Shown piece after piece: positions 329-20,545 of a stretch of DNA of 21,182 nucleotides. Source of the DNA: a virus. Location: the UHGV virus genome UHGV-0103843, one strand, 5' to 3'. The stretch's first letter is position 1. Each line of letters begins with the position of its first letter. The translations under genes and the position numbers were made by a program. The notes beneath the pieces are model-generated. The model searched no databases and was not told where the DNA came from. It saw nothing but the letters and a program-made list of their open reading frames with translations.

Positions 329-1207
329 TCAGTAGTTATGTACTGAAGGAGGTAATTCTTTATTCTTGAGTCTCATCCATGCGGAAAGATTCGTTGGTCC
401 ATCTGGCTCATTAATATCAACATCTCGTGTGTGGTTTATTAAAACGTCTCTCGCCATTCCGATAACATACGAGAATTCATGACCGTAGTCGTAGCATCTG
501 CCGGAATAGTTCGATTGAATTTGTTTTAATGCCGGATACAGTTCGCGGAATAATGCCTGTGAGCGGTTGGCATAATCCCATAACCATACAAGGCTGTTTT
601 CTTCTTTTGCAGAAAGCTCGTTGGTTTTCTTCTCTTGTTTGCCGATGAACTCACCTTCAAGCACTACCCTGTGGATGTACTCTACGGCCAGCGGGATTTG
701 TTCAATTGAAAGTTCATCAATGCTGTCAATACCAAAACGCTGATGAACCATATTGTATGCATCGTCATAGCGAAGTCCTTTCTTTCCTACCAGCATGTTT
801 ACTGCATCGCGTAGCGGCGTTCTTTCCTCAACAGTGGTTTTCTTGCCTTTCACATACTCGCCATGTTTGCGAATTGAAGGTAGAACTTCTGCTGTTACCC
901 ACTTGCGGAATTTGTGCGGGACCGAACCTTTATTGACAGCATCGCGGCAGCGCAGAACCAATGTATACATACCTGATTCGCTAACAATGCTTAGATTCTG
1001 CTCACCACCAAGGGTGTAACTTAAAGTTACTCCCTTTTCATCGTCATCAAGTGCAGTAAGCGCCTTGCGTGAGTTAGTCAGGGTTAAAGCATCACAAACA
1101 TCTTTTGCTACAAACCACGGCTCACCGCATTTGTTGATGACGCGGATTTCACTGTCGCCGAATTTGAAGATGGTGAAATCGTTTTGTGCCTTTGCTATAC
1201 TTTTCAT
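329..1207 (-). CDS. ant: Antirepressor Ant
   Basis: Translation from the internal Met [43 protein letters not shown]... matches P22 Ant as remembered. Start moved from the track start (1273) to the ATG at 1207, which has an AGGAAA ribosome-binding site. Position downstream of arc as in immI. Confidence 0.85.
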
Positions 1208-1275
1208 GTCAATATTTCCTAATCCGATTTGTTGATACCGAAGCCCTGACTGTTCCCGCAGTTGGGGCTTCAACT
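1208..1275 (+). ncRNA. sar: Candidate sar-like antisense RNA covering the ant ribosome-binding site and the arc-ant spacer
   Basis: Plus-strand extended -10 TGCTATACT at 1193-1201 inside the 5' end of ant, pointing opposite to ant. The 68-nt arc-ant spacer contains an inverted repeat GAAGCCC...GGGCTTC (about 1241-1272). P22 is known to make a 68-69 nt sar RNA from this position. Ends are not mapped. Confidence 0.4.
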
Positions 1276-1527: not shown

Positions 1528-1779
1528 ATGGCTAGAGATGATCCGCACTTTAACTTCCGTATGCCTATGGAAGTAAGGGAGAAATTAAAATTCAGGGCGA
1601 AGGCGAATGGGAGATCAATGAACTCCGAGTTGTTACAAATCGTCCAAGATGCTCTATCAAAACCATCGCCTGTGACTGGATATCGCGACGATGCAGAACG
1701 ACTCGCTGATGAGCAGTCAGAGCTTGTTAAGAAGATGGTGTTTGATACGCTGAAGTATTTGTACAAAAAACCCACCTGA
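1528..1779 (+). CDS. mnt: Mnt repressor (ribbon-helix-helix)
   Basis: 83-aa product MARDDPHFNFRMPMEVREKLKFRAKANGRSMNSELLQIVQDALSKPSPVTGYRDDAERLADEQSELVKK... matches P22 Mnt as remembered. GGAG 7 nt upstream of the ATG. Divergent from arc, as in immI. Confidence 0.95.
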   Translation: MARDDPHFNFRMPMEVREKLKFRAKANGRSMNSELLQIVQDALSKPSPVTGYRDDAERLADEQSELVKKMVFDTLKYLYKKPT

Positions 1780-1795: not shown

Positions 1796-2215
1796 TTAGT
1801 CTTGCTTTGTTGATGGTATAAGAGATGCGTTTGCCTCTTTTGGCTTCAAGGTATACATCCCACCATTAAAAGGATCTACAGCAAGCCAACCAATTAACCC
1901 ACCAAACACAAGGTTTCCACCAATATACCAACCATTAGCATTGGCTTTGATTGGCAGGGTAACTGGTTCGTACCCATCCTTTTCCATAGTGATCTGGTAG
2001 CTCTTTTTGCCAAAATAACTACCATCTGACTTGGCAAGAGTTACTCCTTGCGGGGTCTTGCCTTGCGCAACAATCACGCCTGATTCGTCTTTTACTTTAA
2101 AGCTCGCACCGGAAGGATTGCTGTTCACTTGCACGAGCTGTGTTTCGTCACCAACAATAGTTGCGCACCCAGATAACAATATAGCGCCAGCAACAACGCC
2201 GATAATCCTCTTCAT
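1796..2215 (-). CDS. Predicted lipoprotein (candidate superinfection-exclusion or accessory protein)
   Basis: From the internal Met the product begins MKRIIGVVAGAILLSGC: a positive n-region, hydrophobic core and lipobox LSGC. Gly-rich C-terminal segment GGNLVFGGLIGWLAVDPFNGG. Sits between gene 16 and immI, where P22 carries sieA. Confidence 0.6.
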   Translation of the reverse strand: MKRIIGVVAGAILLSGCATIVGDETQLVQVNSNPSGASFKVKDESGVIVAQGKTPQGVTLAKSDGSYFGKKSYQITMEKDGYEPVTLPIKANANGWYIGGNLVFGGLIGWLAVDPFNGGMYTLKPKEANASLIPSTKQD

Positions 2216-2333
2216 ATCAATTTCCATATTTGAAAAAACCGGAAACATCCTAATGACAAACCATTCAAATGTGAAGTAGGCAAAAGATGTTTACTTTTTT
2301 CATGGTATCCTGCTCAAAACTAAGGAGGTTGGT

Positions 2334-2657
2334 GTGTATACAACAGTTATCGTGATAGCTATCGCACTCATTGTGGTTCAGTACCAACTGGCATCTTTAA
2401 AACAAAAGATATCTGACCTCAAGACTGAGAACGAAGCACTTAAAAACTCAATAAAAGATGAGAAGAACAAACTATCATTCACTATATCTGATATTGAGCA
2501 ATCCATTGAAATTATTGAGAATAATATTAACAGACTAAAAAAAGAAGATATTCATGAAATCAATGACAATATCAAGGATTTGAAATCTTGGCTTAGGAAT
2601 GTAGGACAAATCGCCACATCAACACGAGATAAGCTCAATCCATCCATGGATGATTAA
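2334..2657 (+). CDS. Small single-pass membrane protein with a long coiled-coil (hypothetical)
   Basis: GTG start 5 nt after a perfect AAGGAGG. N-terminal hydrophobic helix YTTVIVIAIALIVVQY, then a K/E/N/I-rich heptad-like region. Markedly AT-rich compared with its neighbours. Divergent from the lipoprotein gene. Confidence 0.55.
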   Translation: MYTTVIVIAIALIVVQYQLASLKQKISDLKTENEALKNSIKDEKNKLSFTISDIEQSIEIIENNINRLKKEDIHEINDNIKDLKSWLRNVGQIATSTRDKLNPSMDD

Positions 2658-4784
2658 TTACTCCTGTGCTATTCCGCTTAGCGACGCTACAATGCCAGCC
2701 CTCGCTAAGCGATTGAACTCTTCGTTTCCAACTGCATCACGTATTGCTTTTACGGCGGCTTTATTTGCCATAAATCTGCGTTCCGCCGCCGCTAATGCTT
2801 CTTTACTTCCGCCAGCTCTTACTGCTTTCGTGGCTTCCTGAACTGCTTTCTCTATCGCATATCGACCGCTACGCGTGGTGGCAATTTTAGATACAGCACC
2901 TTTTAACCCGGCGCCAACTAAAGCACCTGCGGCCGCGCCTGCAATGCCCCCACCTGCTCCACCAACAATGGCACCCGACGTTGAGTTTGCAATTGCATTT
3001 AATACTGTTGAGGTAACGTTGGATAAACCAGCGTCAAGATCACGTAGAACATTGGCTGTTCTCCCTGTTCTTTCAATATACTGCTGAGGCTTCACTGCCG
3101 CTCTTGCAAGAGTGCCATATGCATCAGCAATTCTTCCAAGTTCTGAGGAATATCTGCTAATGGCTTTTACATTTTGTGGGGTAAGTATCCCTGCGATATG
3201 GTTAATTCCTGCTGCATCAGATTTGCCACCACGTACACCATGCGAGATAGCATCCTGCAACATTGATGATATAGCAGGAACACGCTCTGATTCTGGCAGC
3301 GCGCGGATCATAGAATGGAATCCAGCAGGACCATTAAGACCTTTAGCTGACGATGATTGAAGAGATTTTACTCCATTCGTAATCAGTGCATCTGTTGCCA
3401 AATCACGCCCAAAAACAGACTCTGCACTCTCTTGTGCGGATAGCCTCGCTTTAGACAGATCATTAGCTTTTTGCCAGTCATCAAGAAATCCGCCGTTTTC
3501 CGCCATTGTGCGCATATCATCAGTAATTGCCCGGCGTATTTCCCCTGCTCTCCTTGCCGCATTTGCCTCTCCGCTACGCTTATATTTTTGCTCAGCATCA
3601 GCAAATTTCGCTCTCCATGCTTTCATGCCATCAAATGTTACTCCACCTTGATTGTTTGCCTGAACAAACTGTTTCATTTCAGGAGTAAGCGGTATGCCAG
3701 CAGATCGCTCTGCCTGAATAACGGCATTACCATTTAGCATTCTTGCTTTTTGATTTGGCATTGTTGACCGCACGTCATCCCATGCCGCGCGCTCGGCATC
3801 CTTCATCTGATCAAGATTTTGAAGAATCCTTTGTTTTATAGCCGCACTTTTTTCTGATGCCGTTCCAGATGCGGCCCCAAATTCATCAAGGTTTCGACTT
3901 AACTTTGATGATATTTCGTTAAATGCTGCCTGATGGGCATCCTGAACAATTCCTGGTGTTGATGCCAATGCGCCTTCGGCTTGTGCAATTCCACGACTTC
4001 CAGATCGCATTCCTGGTGTTAATGCGTTTATATCAATTCCAGCAGACTCAGCCGCTTTTGCTACATCTTCGGACACATTAGCGGCCTGACTGGCAATTGA
4101 CTGACGCCCAGCACCTGACTTTGCCATCCTGGAAACATCATTAGCAGAATTCAGTGCTGCACCACCAAGAGCCTGTGAAACTCTTGGCGCAATAACGCGC
4201 CCGACACCTGAAAGAACGCCTTGAGCACCAATATTGATACCACCGTTAATGGCAGCATTTTGTGCAAAGTCGCCCTCCTGATTTGCAGCATCAGCAAGAG
4301 AACCTGCAATCATGTTTCCTGCGGAACCGATATCTCCAGCGAGCTTTGCTGTCGCTCCAACAGCTTTTGCCGCTGTGCCAATTGGCAGGAGATACCCACC
4401 AATTGTTTCACCGGCTTGTGCGTAAGGGTCTGTCGGTCGATCGACAGGGCGATAAACATCATCCAAAACCTTGGGGCCACCAAGCCCCTGACTGATTGCA
4501 TTAATCAGACTTGCGCCACCCTGCAATACGTCAAATGGTATGTTTACCAGACCACGACCAGCCTGTTCTGCAATTTGCCCTGCACTTTGACCACCAGTGA
4601 GCCAATCGCCAGCTTGTTGCATCAATGATGGTTCTTCCCGTGTTGGTGCATTATTGGCCTGATTAACTGTTTGTTGCTGAACAGCCTGACCAGCAAAATA
4701 CTCATCAATGGCGGTGCCAATATCTTCGGTGCTCGTACCATCAGGAAAGGTAAATGTCTTACCGTTTGCAGTTACTTTCATCAT
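2658..4784 (-). CDS. 16: Ejection (internal virion) protein, gp16 homolog
   Basis: 708-aa Gly/Ala-rich protein in the gp7-gp20-gp16 position. Its start overlaps the gp20 stop as ATGA. Confidence 0.8.
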
Positions 4785-6160
4785 TCCACCGTAAATTGAA
4801 TGCCTGATTTTGACGTGTAGCTACCTCCTGCTGATTGCTGAGTAGGCGGCTGTTGCATTGATGATTTCTTCCCTCCATTACCGACATTAACGTTATATTG
4901 CTGGTTGTAATTGTCGGTATATTGCTGAATGTCGCGCATTGATTGTTGCAGTGCTTCAGGGCTTGAGAAATCAACCTGTGGCATACCTTGAAAATACATC
5001 TTTGCTTCTGCAACGGTGTTGATACCGGATGCCCCCATGTCTCTGGCTGCTGCAATGCCCTGATTCTGCATCTTTCCTTGGATTCGCTGTGCAGCGTTGT
5101 ATAGTTTCCTCTGATCACCACCAGATGCACGGCTACGAATATCTGCACCAAGAGCAGGAGAACCTGAAGAGCCTGTAATGCCAGTCATGAAGCCAAGATC
5201 GTCAATTGATGCACCAGAAATTGCATCAAGATCTTTCTTCATTGCGTAATTCTGCGCGCTTGCTGCCGATGTAGCCGGAGCGGCAATAGAGCCAGCAGGG
5301 ACGCGAACCATATTCCCCTCGTTGTCGATACCTTCGTAGAACGCATTAGCCCCAGCGCCGTGAAGCTTCCCGCCTACCGTTACAGTTCTGCCATCTGCTA
5401 ACTGAACTGTACGCTCATTATTCCCAACCGACCCTTTCATTGATGCTCTCTGCATCGATAAATCCTGACCGCGCATCGTGATATTCTGACCACGCGCTGT
5501 TAGCGCCTCGCCAGCCTGATTGCTGCGGATTGTCTCTGCCAGTCTGCCTCGGTCAATTTCACGACCAGCCATCTTGTCCTGAACAGCAAACGCCTTTTCT
5601 GGTCCAAGCGCACCGAGAGACATAGTAGTCAGCATGTGTGATAGCTGCTCTGGATTCTGGATACCTGTCTGAATCATCCAGTCAGCATTCGCACCCACAC
5701 GATTTAACCTGTCCTTGTTGTCAGTAATGAATTTACTGTAGGCTTCCGGTCCCTGAGAAAGAGCGACGTTAGCCCTCATGGCTAAATCGCCCATATCGTT
5801 GCGTTGCTGATCATTAAGACCGGAAAACGCCTGTTGTGCCTGTGCAACAAACGCTGGATTTTCCTGGGCAAACTTAAATAGTCCCGATGGATCACCAGAA
5901 GCCCATGCATCAGCGTGAACCTTATTGAACGCACTAATAGCTTTCTGTTGCTGTTCCTGATTGTAAATATCAGCAACTCCAGCCAGACCACGTAACGCGG
6001 TCAGGCCAACGTTATTTGCACCTGAGCGAGCCAGTTCATTGTTTTCGCGGATCAGACCAAGCGTTGCGTTAATGTCGCTTGCCTTTGGCGCATTCTCATT
6101 TTGCGTACCGATGCCAGCCAGAAAACCACCAGAATTAATACCCTGTTGCCACGTAGCCAT
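4781..6160 (-). CDS. 20: Ejection protein, gp20 homolog
   Basis: 459 aa, AAGGGG ribosome-binding site, placed between the gp7 and gp16 homologs. Confidence 0.8.
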
Positions 6161-12160: not shown

Positions 12161-13071
12161 TATCGAATTCCTTTATTCAGTTGCGCCTTAAGCTTGCGGT
12201 ACGTCTCTACATCCCCTTTGTTTGCTGCCGCTTCCATCTGCTTTTCAATCGCAGAGATATTTGCAGCAACAGCGTGCCCCTGAATGGGTTCATCAGGTAA
12301 CGGGGCTTCTGAAACAGGCTTGGCTCGAGGCTTGAGAGTTAAACGTTCTGACAGTCGAGTGAGTTCAATCAGCGCGGATTGCCCGTCCATCGCCAGCAAC
12401 TGGCGTGTTTTCTCAGGATTAGCACCAAGGTGATACATGAGAGCGGCGGATTTCTCCGGGAAGAGGCGCATGATGTCGGCACCGACTGCTGGCGGCACCA
12501 GTTGCATGAATGCATCCTCTTTCTCCTGATAGTCAGGGATATTGAGCTTTTCCGCTGCGTCGTAGTGCTTACGGGCTGCCTCGACGTATTGCGCTGATTG
12601 CTGGGTGAACTCCTGAGTTTTGCGACCCTGCTCGGCGACAGCCTGGCTTCGTGCGTCCATAGCCTTGATCTGCCATTCACTGTTTGCCTGCTGGAAGGCA
12701 GCCAGTGCGCGGCTCTGGTCATAGTCGTACTTAGCCAGTGCATCTTCGGAAAGATAATCGTTAGGGTCTGGTTGTTTTGGTAACTCAGGGTTCACCCGCA
12801 GGTGCTCCGGCAACTCTCCACGCTTAACCGCTTCCATCTGCTGCTCAAGCTCACGCTGGCGTTTGCGTTCAATGCGGCGACGGGCAAATTCAGCATTAGT
12901 TGCCGGGTCTTGTTTTGGTTTCTCATCGTCTTTCAGGACAATCTCGAAGCCTTCTTCCTGACCTGCGTTGTCGTTGGCATTATCGACAACTAAGCCATCA
13001 GCAGATGCCGCTGCATGATTGCCGGGCAGGGTTAATTCTTCAGAAGCCTGAATGTCGGTGGTTTGGTCCAT
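12160..13071 (-). CDS. 8: Scaffolding protein, gp8 homolog
   Basis: 303 aa (same length as P22 gp8). Central [40 protein letters not shown] and C-terminal [11 protein letters not shown] match P22 scaffold as remembered. Confidence 0.95.
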
Positions 13072-13084
13072 GATTAACTCTCTC

Positions 13085-15250
13085 TTATTGAGGTGTCTCG
13101 GCTACTCCGCCGGAGGGGATTTGAACTTGACGCATAAGATTCGCGAAATCCATGCGTTGTGAATGAGTCTGGTCTGCATCTTTAAGAAGCAGCTCAGCGT
13201 TAGCACGAGCATCTTTGCTGCGCTGTTGCTGGAATTGACCTACGAGCTTGAGGTACTCACGCAGTTCTGCCTGCTTGTCGAGGTCCATATTGTTGAAGAT
13301 TTCTGCAATCTTCGCGGCGTTGAGTTGGTTTTGGGCTTCAACCTTGGCAGCTTCAACCTGAATCTGCGCCTGTTGGTTCTCTGCCTTGAGCAATTCAGCC
13401 TGACCTTGCAGAAGGATACCCTGCGCCTGAATTTGCTCTGCTGATGGCTGCTGCGGCTGTTGTTGTGCCTGCTGCACCATCTCCATCTCTTCAGGTGTTT
13501 CTGGTTTCTTCAGCCCCATCATCACCAGTTGCTTGTTCGCGTACTCTCGCATCATCTCGACGCCTTTACCGTCAAGCAGCGTGAAGTATTGCAGCATCAG
13601 CATCTGGAACTCTGGAGTACCTTGCGGAACCTTGGTGAGTAACTCCTGAATCTCTGCGCGGTTCTGTTCCTTCATACTCTGGAAGGATGGTCCAACGTCT
13701 GTATAGCACTCATAGCGACCGCGAATGTCGTTGAGTGTGACCACATTGCCAGACTGGTAATCTACAACTTGCGCATAGAGTTGAATGTCTTTCTCGCTTC
13801 CATCTTCAAGTGTCAGCGTTACATGGCGAGGAACGTCATAAATATCGTTGACCATTGAGGCATAAATCTCGCCATCACGTCGCATTGCGGTAGCCAGGTT
13901 ATCCTGAAACACGTATGTCTCAAGGTCTGCCCGCATGTTCAGTTGATTGACGGTATCGAAAGCGACCTGACCATTTGCCTCCTGCGCATCCACGCCAAGA
14001 CTAGCCACCTCTTTCACTGCGTTGGTGGCAGCCTCAAGCATGTAAGCGTTGGCTTGCGGCACTTCAGGGTTTTCCATGTAGGAGATTGGACCAATCGGCA
14101 GGTCGTTACCGTTTTCATCGGTCCTGTTCTGCAGATAGTACGGATAGTCATCATTTCCACCGTACATGTATTCGTAGCCTTCGATTTGCTCAGGGAAGAA
14201 GGTAGGTTTCTTCTTCGGTGAACGAGCAACAATATCGGCGTTGAACGACATGATCATGTTACGAAGGCGTTGACCGTCTTTCGTCAGCCTTACCACTCCT
14301 TCGTAGCACTCCTTGTCACCAGCGAATGACCATTCGCCATACACTGGAACGATTGGAATATGCTCTCCGGCTATCTTCTCGCGGTCTTTCAGTATCTGCG
14401 TGCAGGTGATGATCGACTTATACACACGCCGACGCTTCAACTTGCGCTCTGCTACCTTAATGAATCCACGATTAGCCAGGTCGTCGATGACGTCTTTGAT
14501 ATCCTGCTGGTAATAGCTGACCGGCTCACCTGTCAGCGGGTCGCGGTAGATGAAGACTTTCTCTTTCTTCTCTTCTACCTCGTAATACTCAGCGACGTAG
14601 ACGACATCATTCGATACCCACGGAAACAGCCATGTGTCGTTCGGATTCTGGAAAGATGGCAGGGTGTCCGGATCAATACCGTAATCCTCTGCGAACTCTT
14701 TCCAGCCATTGCGTGACAAAGCGTTAATCACCGTGCAGTGCTTAGCGTCGCTCTTATCCATCTGCTTGCTGTTGGCGTCCCATATGACGTGTGAGCAGGC
14801 TTCATGGATTGGCAGGCGTCGGATTACCTGATTGTTGCTTGTTGGGTCGTTGTCTTCGTACTGTGTGACCAGACGCCATGCACCAACGCCGGACTCTATC
14901 TGCTCACGAACGCCAACGTTAACGGCAATCTTTGCCGTGTTATGGCGCATATCAGTACGATACATCCCCATCAACACATCGGCTGCCTCAGGATTAGCGC
15001 CGTCTTTGGGTCGGAAGAGAACGTCGATAGGGTTCCGGCGCATCTCTGCGACCAGTTTCCTGACCACTGGGCGGACAACATCGAATTGTCCGCGATATTG
15101 CAGGGTGGTGTAGTTTGATAGCCAGTCATCCCATTGCGACACTCGGCTAAAATACAGGTCATTTGTCGCCTCGGTTCTGGCTTCATCGCTCGCCATCCAG
15201 TCCGCGTCAAACTTACACAGAATGGAATTGAGTCTGTTTTCGTCGGCCAT
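13085..15250 (-). CDS. 1: Portal protein, gp1 homolog
   Basis: 721 aa directly after the terminase large subunit (TAA followed by ATG), with a long Gln-rich coiled-coil C-terminal barrel region as in P22 portal. Confidence 0.9.
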
Positions 15251-20389: not shown

Positions 20390-20465
20390 TGGTGCCGGTT
20401 AACGGATTTGAACCGCTACCTATTCACTTACAAGGCGACCGCTCTACCATTGGAGCTAAACCAGC
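20390..20465 (-). tRNA. tRNA-Thr (anticodon UGU)-like, phage-encoded
   Basis: 76 nt folded by hand: 7-bp acceptor stem with one G-U pair, D-stem GCUC/GAGC with the GG loop, anticodon loop CUUGUAA (U33, UGU, A37), T-arm AGCGG-UUCAAAU-CCGUU, discriminator A and encoded CCA. The anticodon stem has one mismatch. Confidence 0.55.
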
Positions 20466-20470
20466 ATGTT

Positions 20471-20545
20471 TGGCGGGACAGCGTGGACTCGAACCACGAT
20501 AAGAAGGTTAACAGCCTTCCGTAATGACCTTTATACGACTGACCC
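20471..20545 (-). tRNA. tRNA-Asn (anticodon GUU)-like, phage-encoded, atypical D-arm
   Basis: 75 nt folded by hand: anticodon stem GAAGG/CCUUC, loop CUGUUAA, T-arm CGUGG-UUCGAGU-CCACG, discriminator G and CCA as in E. coli tRNA-Asn. Acceptor stem has one U-U mismatch and the D-stem is weak, so it may be degenerate. Confidence 0.5.

Follow-up and report, generated by a model that had tools for sequence, protein, structure and literature searches.

Gene content of the interval

We analyzed two divergently transcribed genes, one encoding a lipoprotein and the other a homolog of hkcB, that lie between mnt and gene 16 in a 21,182-nucleotide stretch of viral DNA (UHGV virus genome UHGV-0103843; the whole of this stretch is called the window below). 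Its sequence shows the window to be a prophage of the P22-like kind (Lederbergvirus), in which the late genes lie on the minus strand. After mnt (positions 1528-1779, plus strand) comes the lipoprotein gene (1796-2215, minus strand), which encodes 139 residues, is a homolog of gene 15 of Salmonella phage epsilon34 and matches phrog_6823 at 6e-86. It is followed by the hkcB homolog (2334-2657, plus strand; 107 residues from a GTG start; phrog_5962 at 1.4e-58 over residues 1-107) and by the homolog of gene 16, which encodes an ejection protein (2658-4784, minus strand). This order corresponds to the P22 layout mnt-orf59a-sieA-16. An earlier note, made from the letters alone, had placed a divergent accessory pair at the sieA position and regarded both genes as horizontally acquired cargo. 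The P22-like layout bears out the pair and its position, and the ant morons of related phages vary in whether they contain either gene, each being found or missing between genes that are otherwise adjacent, as expected of exchangeable cargo and of morons. However, hkcB is the sole occupant of the sieA slot itself; the lipoprotein gene replaces a different gene, hkcC, on the other strand.

A terminator scan identified a bidirectional intrinsic terminator at 1770-1787 that is common to mnt (plus strand) and the lipoprotein gene (minus strand). On the minus strand seven T residues directly follow the stem, and a Rho-independent terminator is annotated at the homologous site in epsilon34. Bases 1500-2900 are 97.6% identical to epsilon34, in which the two genes are numbered 15 and 14 and annotated as "conserved hypothetical", and 99.8% identical to a prophage of Escherichia coli strain 162.2. 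Villafane et al. (2008) described this interval as part of a variable "ant moron", identified gene 14 as a homolog of HK620 hkcB and noted matches of gene 15 to numerous bacterial genes whose function is unknown (PMC2629481). Both genes have been in the literature as uncharacterized since 2001 and 2008, and they are not new objects.

HkcB is a small membrane protein with a conserved tail

The hkcB gene begins with GTG, 5 nt downstream of an AAGGAGG ribosome site at 2322-2328, and has a guanine-plus-cytosine (GC) content of 33.3% compared to 48.9% for the whole window. The protein has one hydrophobic segment, predicted to span the membrane, at residues 4-22 (2343-2399, plus strand; Kyte-Doolittle 19-residue mean of 2.2). 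The earlier description of an AT-rich, 107-residue product with a single N-terminal transmembrane segment behind a perfect AAGGAGG site therefore holds. The long coiled coil that it also proposed needs some qualification. AlphaFold models residues 2-101 as one continuous helix, and the windowed heptad periodicity of 0.66 is far above that of shuffled sequences (0.31 +/- 0.06; none of 1000 shuffles reached 0.66), but the pattern has two breaks and a single uninterrupted heptad register was not significant. The C-terminal tail is conserved (W86, N89-V90-G91 and the motif ATSTRDKxNPS), and a ratio of non-synonymous to synonymous substitution (dN/dS) of 0.26-0.32 indicates purifying selection. No basic residue precedes the transmembrane segment, and the next 15 residues include four lysines; in the HK620 variant the N-terminal flank is acidic (Glu) and the C-terminal flank is rich in R/K. 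Because of this charge distribution and the positive-inside rule, the N terminus would be outside and the C terminus inside, and the coiled coil and conserved tail are probably cytoplasmic.

By full-length homology HkcB is a member of PHROG 5962. It is 99% identical to epsilon34 gp14, 97% to CUS-3 HkcB and 51-56% to HK620 HkcB, and the C-terminal 40 residues are near-identical between the window and HK620 proteins. A profile search of 5.8 billion proteins returned 48 clusters, with all named hits in Enterobacteriaceae, and the length is 90-110 residues throughout these clusters except for N-terminally over-extended calls and fragments. Every context that we examined was a P22-like prophage in which hkcB and gene 16 are separated by 0 nt (the window and the CUS-3, SEN22, HK620, Salmonella, Leclercia, Citrobacter and Klebsiella loci). 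The two genes are convergent, with abutting stop codons (TAATTA) and no terminator between them. Sub-cut-off matches of HkcB to RIMB1, COG5, BicD, SMC, Rad50, JetC, LmuB and other models in Pfam, NCBIfam and PADLOC cover the coiled coil and were set aside as compositional. We also rejected the idea that HkcB is an Rz-like i-spanin, given its location in the ant moron, its divergent orientation from the lipoprotein gene, PHROG matches of only E about 1e-3 and charges that favor a cytoplasmic coiled coil.

The sieA slot is an expression cassette with interchangeable cargo

In P22, gene 16 is directly preceded by sieA, which lies in the orientation of mnt and is convergent with gene 16, as is hkcB here. 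Sequence comparison revealed that the resemblance extends upstream of the genes. About 50 bp preceding hkcB, including the Shine-Dalgarno site and the GTG start, are near-identical upstream of P22 sieA and HK620 hkcB, and the same block precedes an open reading frame (ORF) of 75 residues with two helices in E. coli 55989 and, in O111 strains, the gene for a secreted protein. We refer to this block (2286-2336, plus strand) as the sieA-slot expression cassette; it contains the -10 side of the P22 promoter PsieA, an extended-10-like TGnTATCCT, AAGGAGG and GTG. The PsieA promoter is annotated at this cassette in P22 records, and an 85-bp upstream fragment sufficed for sieA exclusion at single copy in the chromosome (PMC10883804). 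The hkcB gene has this conserved cassette and no terminator of its own.

We surveyed 50,697 phage records, 5,426 complete E. coli genomes and 118 viral contigs. The cassette was found in 70 phage records and at no fewer than 119 loci in viral contigs, where it precedes at least 12 unrelated ORF families, 11 of the 12 having a transmembrane segment or signal peptide. The earlier note had asked whether other P22-like prophages carry different cargo at the same junction, and clearly they do. A secreted 129-residue protein is the most frequent of the cargos counted (22 loci), followed by a 109-residue transmembrane and coiled-coil protein (20 loci), HkcB (16 loci) and SieA (10 loci); the others include several membrane proteins of 62-149 residues with one to four helices, two small secreted proteins and a 140-residue protein without a membrane signal. 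SieA is the sole characterized member of these 12 families. No paper describing the shared cassette was found in a literature that is only partly searchable.

The 109-residue cargo (MLEIIVFVLGIACCALYAELVSLKKKV...; contig L045 and 19 other viral contigs) has the same transmembrane and coiled-coil architecture as HkcB. Its similarity to HkcB is weak and N-terminal (BLASTP E of 4e-5; hhalign 65%), the C-terminal half differs, and this cargo never adjoins the C-terminal gp16 module described below, which hints that the C-terminal half sets specificity. A different lipoprotein, rich in Q, occupies the slot in phage Gally and E. coli QML220601 (161 residues from the lipoprotein start; 171 as annotated in Gally).

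The minus strand of the cassette block holds the start of hkcC. Compared to the intact hkcC of HK620 and E. coli 55989, the window retains at 2265-2303 (minus strand) only a remnant, the start codon and first six codons (MKKVNI), after which unrelated sequence runs to a stop. Since only these six codons are kept, hkcC was replaced by the lipoprotein cassette, and the joint lies near 2286. The annotated -35 element of PsieA is not conserved in the window because this joint falls between -35 and -10; the -10 side and TGnTATCCT remain. The intact HkcC of HK620 and E. coli 55989, of 122 residues (locus L023, 2054-2419, minus strand, is an example), contains HECAH, an instance of the HExxH motif, and this points to a small metalloprotease-like protein.

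hkcB is linked to a C-terminal module of gp16

Alignment showed that the gene 16 homolog abutting hkcB encodes a distinct C-terminal module of 66 residues (2661-2858, minus strand). This module was present at all 24 hkcB loci, eight of eight inspected by hand and 16 of 16 in viral contigs, compared to 12 of 99 other contigs (Fisher p = 2e-12 for 16/16 vs. 12/99, although the loci are not independent). HK620 gp16 also ends in the module, and is otherwise only 26% identical to CUS-3 gp16 (PMC10883804). The gp16 proteins of P22, O111-type prophages, Gally and BTP1 are without it. Between distant loci, synonymous sites are near saturation in the module as well as in hkcB (proportion of synonymous differences, pS, 0.47-0.8), so the association is old and held at the protein level. 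Nucleotide-level conservation of the gene 16 3' end, as would be expected of an RNA signal, was considered and rejected, since its synonymous divergence equals that of hkcB.

We also considered HkcB as a helper of gp16. P22 hybrids carrying genes 7, 20 and 16 of CUS-3 or HK620 together with sieA, and not hkcB, are viable (PMC10883804), and this idea was therefore rejected. Mutations that escape SieA map to gp16 (G532W and P546S, in a protein of about 609 residues) and to gp20 (PMC10883804), which makes the C terminus of gp16 a reasonable candidate target for HkcB.

The lipoprotein belongs to a chromosomal family captured by phages

The lipoprotein ORF spans 1796-2248 (minus strand) and encodes 150 residues from its first ATG. 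A 139-residue form starting at the ATG at 2215 (MKRII) is backed by an alignment of 46 family members, all of which begin MK. The same alignment supports the signal peptide and lipobox that the earlier note had described (MKRIIGVVAGAILLSG/C; 2165-2215, minus strand). In the lipobox, L14-S15-G16-C17, which conforms to [LVI][ASTVI][GAS]C without Asp at +2, the predicted lipidated residue Cys17 and the following Ala18 (+2) are invariant in the 46 homologs. Under the Lol pathway sorting rule, Ala rather than Asp at +2 directs a lipoprotein to the outer membrane, which indicates that this protein is of the predicted outer-membrane-sorted type. The Gly-rich C-terminal segment, about residues 94-125 (NGWYIGGNLVFGGLIGWLAVDPFNGGMYTLKP), proved to be the best-conserved block of the alignment, with the motif NGWYIGGNxxFGGLIGWLxVDPFNGGMYTLxP (1841-1936, minus strand); it is hydrophobic (Kyte-Doolittle mean of 1.28) and glycine-zipper-like. 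AlphaFold predicts a confident beta-sandwich at residues 25-93 (predicted local distance difference test score, pLDDT, about 94; 77.7 overall), a low-confidence glycine-rich hydrophobic helix at 95-112 and then two strands returning to the sandwich. Matches to known domains are weak: residues 68-133 to LEPBI_I2678 in NCBIfam, and the Pfam family PEGA (PF08308) with a score of 17.6 against a family cut-off of 20.8. The predicted location of both products in the envelope, the lipoprotein by its signal peptide and lipobox and HkcB by its transmembrane segment, thus agrees with the earlier reading. The atypical composition claimed for both genes does not hold for the lipoprotein gene (44.8% GC), as opposed to hkcB.

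The window protein is 98% identical to epsilon34 gp15 and 100% identical to the Gally protein. Its family, with the same lipobox, beta-sandwich and C-terminal motif, comprises 3,682 clusters at 50% identity (E of 1e-3 or better), is constant in length across hundreds of clusters, and includes members labeled "PEGA domain-containing protein" in Gammaproteobacteria; one relative is fused to an OmpA-type barrel. At least 31 species of Pantoea and Erwinia carry a homolog at a fixed chromosomal site, mmuP-mmuM-[lipoprotein]-GNAT (for example locus L217, 5540-8955), flanked by genes for an S-methylmethionine permease (mmuP), a homocysteine methyltransferase (mmuM) and an acetyltransferase (GNAT). 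The Enterobacter and Xenorhabdus copies are also chromosomal and lie among unrelated genes; the neighborhoods of the homologs in these three settings (Pantoea, Enterobacter, Xenorhabdus) gave no hint of function.

The close relatives in Enterobacteriaceae, on the other hand, are prophage cargo at several late-region positions, in every case in the orientation of the late genes. They lie between the tail chaperone and tape measure genes in prophages of Proteus and of the E. coli ED1a type, with the Proteus copy having a promoter-like site, clearer than that of the window, and flanking terminators on both sides. A relative in Pseudescherichia is inserted between gpI and gpJ. Counting the ant moron, capture by phages has occurred at four or more late-region positions. 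On the basis of these homologies, the protein is a host lipoprotein, predicted to be sorted to the outer membrane, that temperate phages have captured repeatedly. Repeated capture together with very strong constraint (dN/dS of 0.03) argues for a selectable effect in lysogens or late in infection. E. coli lambdoid prophages with a lipoprotein relative also have a Porin_1 porin gene between their gpM and gpL homologs (L005-L008, about 12260-13425, plus strand), and in these prophages the outer membrane would be remodeled in more than one way.

As a moron, the lipoprotein gene has a terminator and a weak promoter-like site. The candidate sigma-70 promoter found by scanning, TTCACA-17-TAGGAT (2247-2275, minus strand), matches 9 of 12 consensus positions, but such sites occur in this region at chance expectation, and the -35 is not kept in phage Gally.

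The two genes assort independently

If the lipoprotein and HkcB were parts of one system, they would be expected to travel together. Among the phage records HkcB occurs in epsilon34, CUS-3, SEN22, HK620 and vB_EcoP-611R6, and the lipoprotein in epsilon34, Gally and vB_EcoP-720R6, so that epsilon34 alone has both. Of the complete E. coli genomes, 155 (about 3%) had hkcB, 126 (about 2%) had the lipoprotein gene and 10 had the two side by side. The lipoprotein gene of viral contigs adjoins five different slot cargos, and the neighbor of HkcB is the lipoprotein in seven, hkcC in one and other genes in seven. Individual prophages illustrate the same point. In NRG 857C the slot is deleted and the lipoprotein gene directly adjoins gene 16; in O111 strains it stands beside a secreted protein in place of HkcB; Citrobacter and Klebsiella prophages have HkcB with other neighbors; and in one Salmonella prophage the lipoprotein differs by one residue from that of the window while HkcB is 60% identical.

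The earlier note had proposed that the pair forms a two-part superinfection-exclusion or receptor-masking module, and an envelope-spanning complex such as a spanin-like pairing would be one form of this. The genes are adjacent and divergent with a common intergenic region, and one product is predicted for each membrane. HkcB has its weak PHROG matches to Rz-like spanins (E about 1e-3), and in a Leclercia P22-like prophage an unrelated lipoprotein of 134 residues (lipobox TGGC; L018, 5514-5918, minus strand) occupies the same divergent place beside hkcB. Co-occurrence in viral contigs is also modestly enriched (7/15 vs. 19/99; Fisher p = 0.04, with loci that are not independent), as is expected of adjacent genes anyway. 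However, phages, E. coli genomes and viral contigs all show the two genes assorting independently, the lipoprotein is found with five slot cargos as well as in siphovirus prophages and chromosomes that lack hkcB, and a mosaic joint, marked by the hkcC remnant, separates the two. By the positive-inside rule, the coiled coil of HkcB would be cytoplasmic. The matches to spanins stem from a similar architecture and nothing more, and the lipoprotein is a 123-residue beta-sandwich unlike o-spanins. A two-part module is therefore very improbable, and that claim of the earlier note is not supported. We regard it as very likely that the two genes are independent morons, hkcB being an allele of the sieA slot and the lipoprotein gene a capture from host chromosomes.

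Possible functions of the two genes

The one function that is understood at this locus is superinfection exclusion by P22 SieA, which targets the ejection-protein channel. By analogy, we propose that the window carries two separate P22-like morons, with HkcB a blocker of phage entry in the sieA slot and the lipoprotein a modifier of the outer membrane; taken as a whole, we rate this proposal at somewhat better than even. The conserved block of -10 side, Shine-Dalgarno site and GTG beside the end of gene 16 would drive interchangeable small envelope proteins. HkcB, if made in the lysogen, would like SieA block DNA delivery by incoming P22-like phages, probably by interfering with the ejection-protein channel and most plausibly through the accompanying gp16 C-terminal module. 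The lipoprotein gene would be a self-contained cassette ending at its terminator, copied from a chromosomal gammaproteobacterial family, that took the place of hkcC, and its product may change some outer-membrane property of the lysogen, affecting either the robustness of the envelope or the entry of phages. For HkcB an exclusion function is plausible, at a little under even, by analogy to SieA; for the lipoprotein it is weak and speculative, and nothing distinguishes receptor masking from a role in envelope fitness.

Several observations weigh against this proposal. HkcB shares no recognizable homology with SieA, since BLASTP aligned only an 18-residue stretch (E of 0.047) and the two fell into separate clusters in all-against-all BLAST, and it has one transmembrane segment rather than three together with a long coiled coil. 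With the PsieA -35 not conserved, expression of hkcB in the lysogen cannot be assumed, and the lipoprotein gene may be transcribed solely by late read-through, its own promoter being weakly supported. An exclusive association between the gp16 module and hkcB had to be rejected because the module also lies beside a few other slot cargos, and the linkage may merely reflect adjacency. The 140-residue cargo means that the slot is not reserved for envelope proteins. PADLOC-DB 2.0 returned no match for the lipoprotein and, for HkcB, only matches of coiled-coil composition (E of 6e-4 or weaker). Among the best 80 species loci of the lipoprotein family, lambdoid hallmark genes were nearby in six and the other 74 were chromosomal and non-phage; with a family so largely chromosomal, a general envelope role fits at least as well as an anti-phage role. 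No functional study of either protein was found in the searchable literature.

Of the other explanations, the most serious is that neither gene acts against phages, the lipoprotein being a host-fitness conversion factor like lambda Bor and HkcB having another membrane role. The chiefly chromosomal family with its fixed site in Pantoea and Erwinia, the dN/dS of 0.03, the lack of a defense-database match and the porin morons in prophages that bear the lipoprotein all fit this idea. The earlier note had itself counted homology to housekeeping envelope proteins as evidence against its module; this is partly what was found, for the lipoprotein only, whose family is mainly chromosomal. For the lipoprotein gene alone, the idea is close to equally likely. 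The slot and cassette that hkcB has in common with sieA, and its linkage to the gp16 module, point instead to phage entry, and for the two genes together the explanation is unlikely. If it were correct, both would be ordinary lysogenic-conversion cargo. That the ORFs are decaying remnants or chance ORFs is scarcely credible. Neither has an annotation beyond hypothetical protein, and hkcB is rich in AT, a composition that readily gives helical, coiled-coil-like translations; but both genes are under purifying selection, lengths are constant in 48 HkcB clusters and hundreds of lipoprotein clusters, the lipobox is invariant, and the fold of the lipoprotein is predicted with high confidence.

A further possibility is that the hkcB locus acts mainly as an RNA, with the protein being secondary; the transcript would read on, antisense, into the gene 16 3' end and silence the late transcripts of incoming phages that have the same sequence. 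A precedent comes from this side of gene 16. The BTP1 prophage has a highly expressed transcript, STnc6030, that runs from the tailspike side to the gene 16 3' end; by itself it excludes BTP1 and leaves P22 unaffected, the resident prophage can still be induced as usual, and all four escape changes are non-synonymous in gp16 (PMC7067206). Having excluded ORFs of more than 60 residues, its authors interpreted it as an antisense RNA with the same kind of silencing role (PMC7067206). The 0-nt convergent gap without a terminator and the strict linkage of hkcB to one gene 16 3' module would also suit an RNA. However, the length, transmembrane segment and tail of HkcB are conserved, dN/dS is about 0.3 with synonymous sites saturated, and a perfect Shine-Dalgarno site precedes the gene. 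The BTP1 phenotype, a block of entry, fits a gp16-directed protein equally well. On the STnc6030 strand of BTP1 (LT714109, 14011-14082, minus strand) we found a 23-residue hydrophobic ORF (MERDLLNFVFLIFGLVVGKLLFA) with a GGAGGG ribosome site and an upstream TATAAT, overlapping the gene 16 stop by 12 nt. STnc6030 could therefore encode a membrane micro-protein instead of acting as RNA, and both mechanisms are possible for the slot generally. For hkcB itself we consider an RNA mechanism quite improbable.

A broader version of the entry-blocker proposal would make the sieA slot a hypervariable exclusion cassette. In that case each cargo would be a DNA-delivery blocker matched to a class of ejection proteins, HkcB would recognize the gp16 module, STnc6030 would serve as the message for a membrane peptide of 23 residues encoded in this slot, and the lipoprotein would form an independent outer-membrane layer. 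This generalization is tentative and, in our judgment, unlikely as a whole. The sieA gene is missing from two-thirds of the P22-like phages that have been sequenced (PMC10883804). If the other cassette cargos, including HkcB, are entry blockers, this would account for the high variability of gp16 and gp20, which are among the most variable genes of the virion, and the cargos would provide a natural set of probes for podovirus DNA passage across the envelope, with relevance to predicting the phage susceptibility of E. coli and Salmonella lysogens. What the present analysis adds to the earlier descriptions is the shared sieA-slot cassette with its swapped envelope cargos, the linkage of HkcB to the gp16 module and the chromosomal origin of the lipoprotein.

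Other features of the window

The ORF list places ant at 329-1273 (minus strand), and arc, also on the minus strand, lies between ant and mnt in gene order. On the other side of the pair, the gene 20 homolog (4781-6160, minus strand) follows that of gene 16. Rfam identified the sar antisense RNA of the immI region at 1209-1275 (plus strand; 71.6 bits) and two adjacent transfer RNA (tRNA) genes near the far end of the window (20393-20545, minus strand). The BTP1 annotation has tRNA-Asn and tRNA-Thr between Q and the lysis genes.

Comparison with known systems

P22 SieA is the closest functional reference for HkcB. The two genes have in common the slot, the orientation, the convergence with gene 16, the upstream cassette and the GTG start, and both products are small inner-membrane proteins, in the case of HkcB by prediction. 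In position hkcB qualifies as a sieA gene, as it lies between genes 16 and 9 behind PsieA, of which the annotated -35 is not conserved. The protein itself does not, as SieA proteins have three or four transmembrane segments and HkcB a single hydrophobic one, and the motif FxRYPxEAxxFNK of SieA types A-C is absent. SieA acts on the ejection proteins gp16 and gp20 (PMC10883804). STnc6030 of BTP1, which is transcribed in the lysogen, resembles hkcB in running from the tailspike side towards gene 16, whose 3' end it overlaps, and the exclusion that it confers is specific to phages with a matching gene 16 end. BTP1 differs from the window in having no ant moron, no hkcB and a different upstream sequence, and STnc6030 was described as non-coding.

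Small outer-membrane lipoproteins encoded by phages in or near the tail genes, and co-oriented with the late genes, include the exclusion lipoproteins Cor (phi80, N15 and HK022) and Llp (T5), as well as Bor (lambda), and the window lipoprotein resembles them in these respects. The mature domain of the window lipoprotein is unrelated to those of Cor and Llp; Cor models (NF047972 and phrog_1119) aligned only with residues 1-20 or 1-30, the signal peptide, with E values of 0.0034 and 0.19. The lipoprotein relatives of E. coli and Proteus prophages lie between the tail chaperone and tape measure genes, which we take to be the position of the HK97 gene 15 moron. HK97 gp15, which mediates superinfection exclusion, is an inner-membrane protein unrelated in sequence to the lipoprotein. 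Finally, HkcB is of the same family as epsilon34 gene 14 and the hkcB genes of CUS-3 and HK620 (PHROG 5962), in the same slot abutting gene 16 and without substantial difference from them, and the window lipoprotein stands apart from most gammaproteobacterial members of its own family in being carried by a phage rather than by a chromosome.

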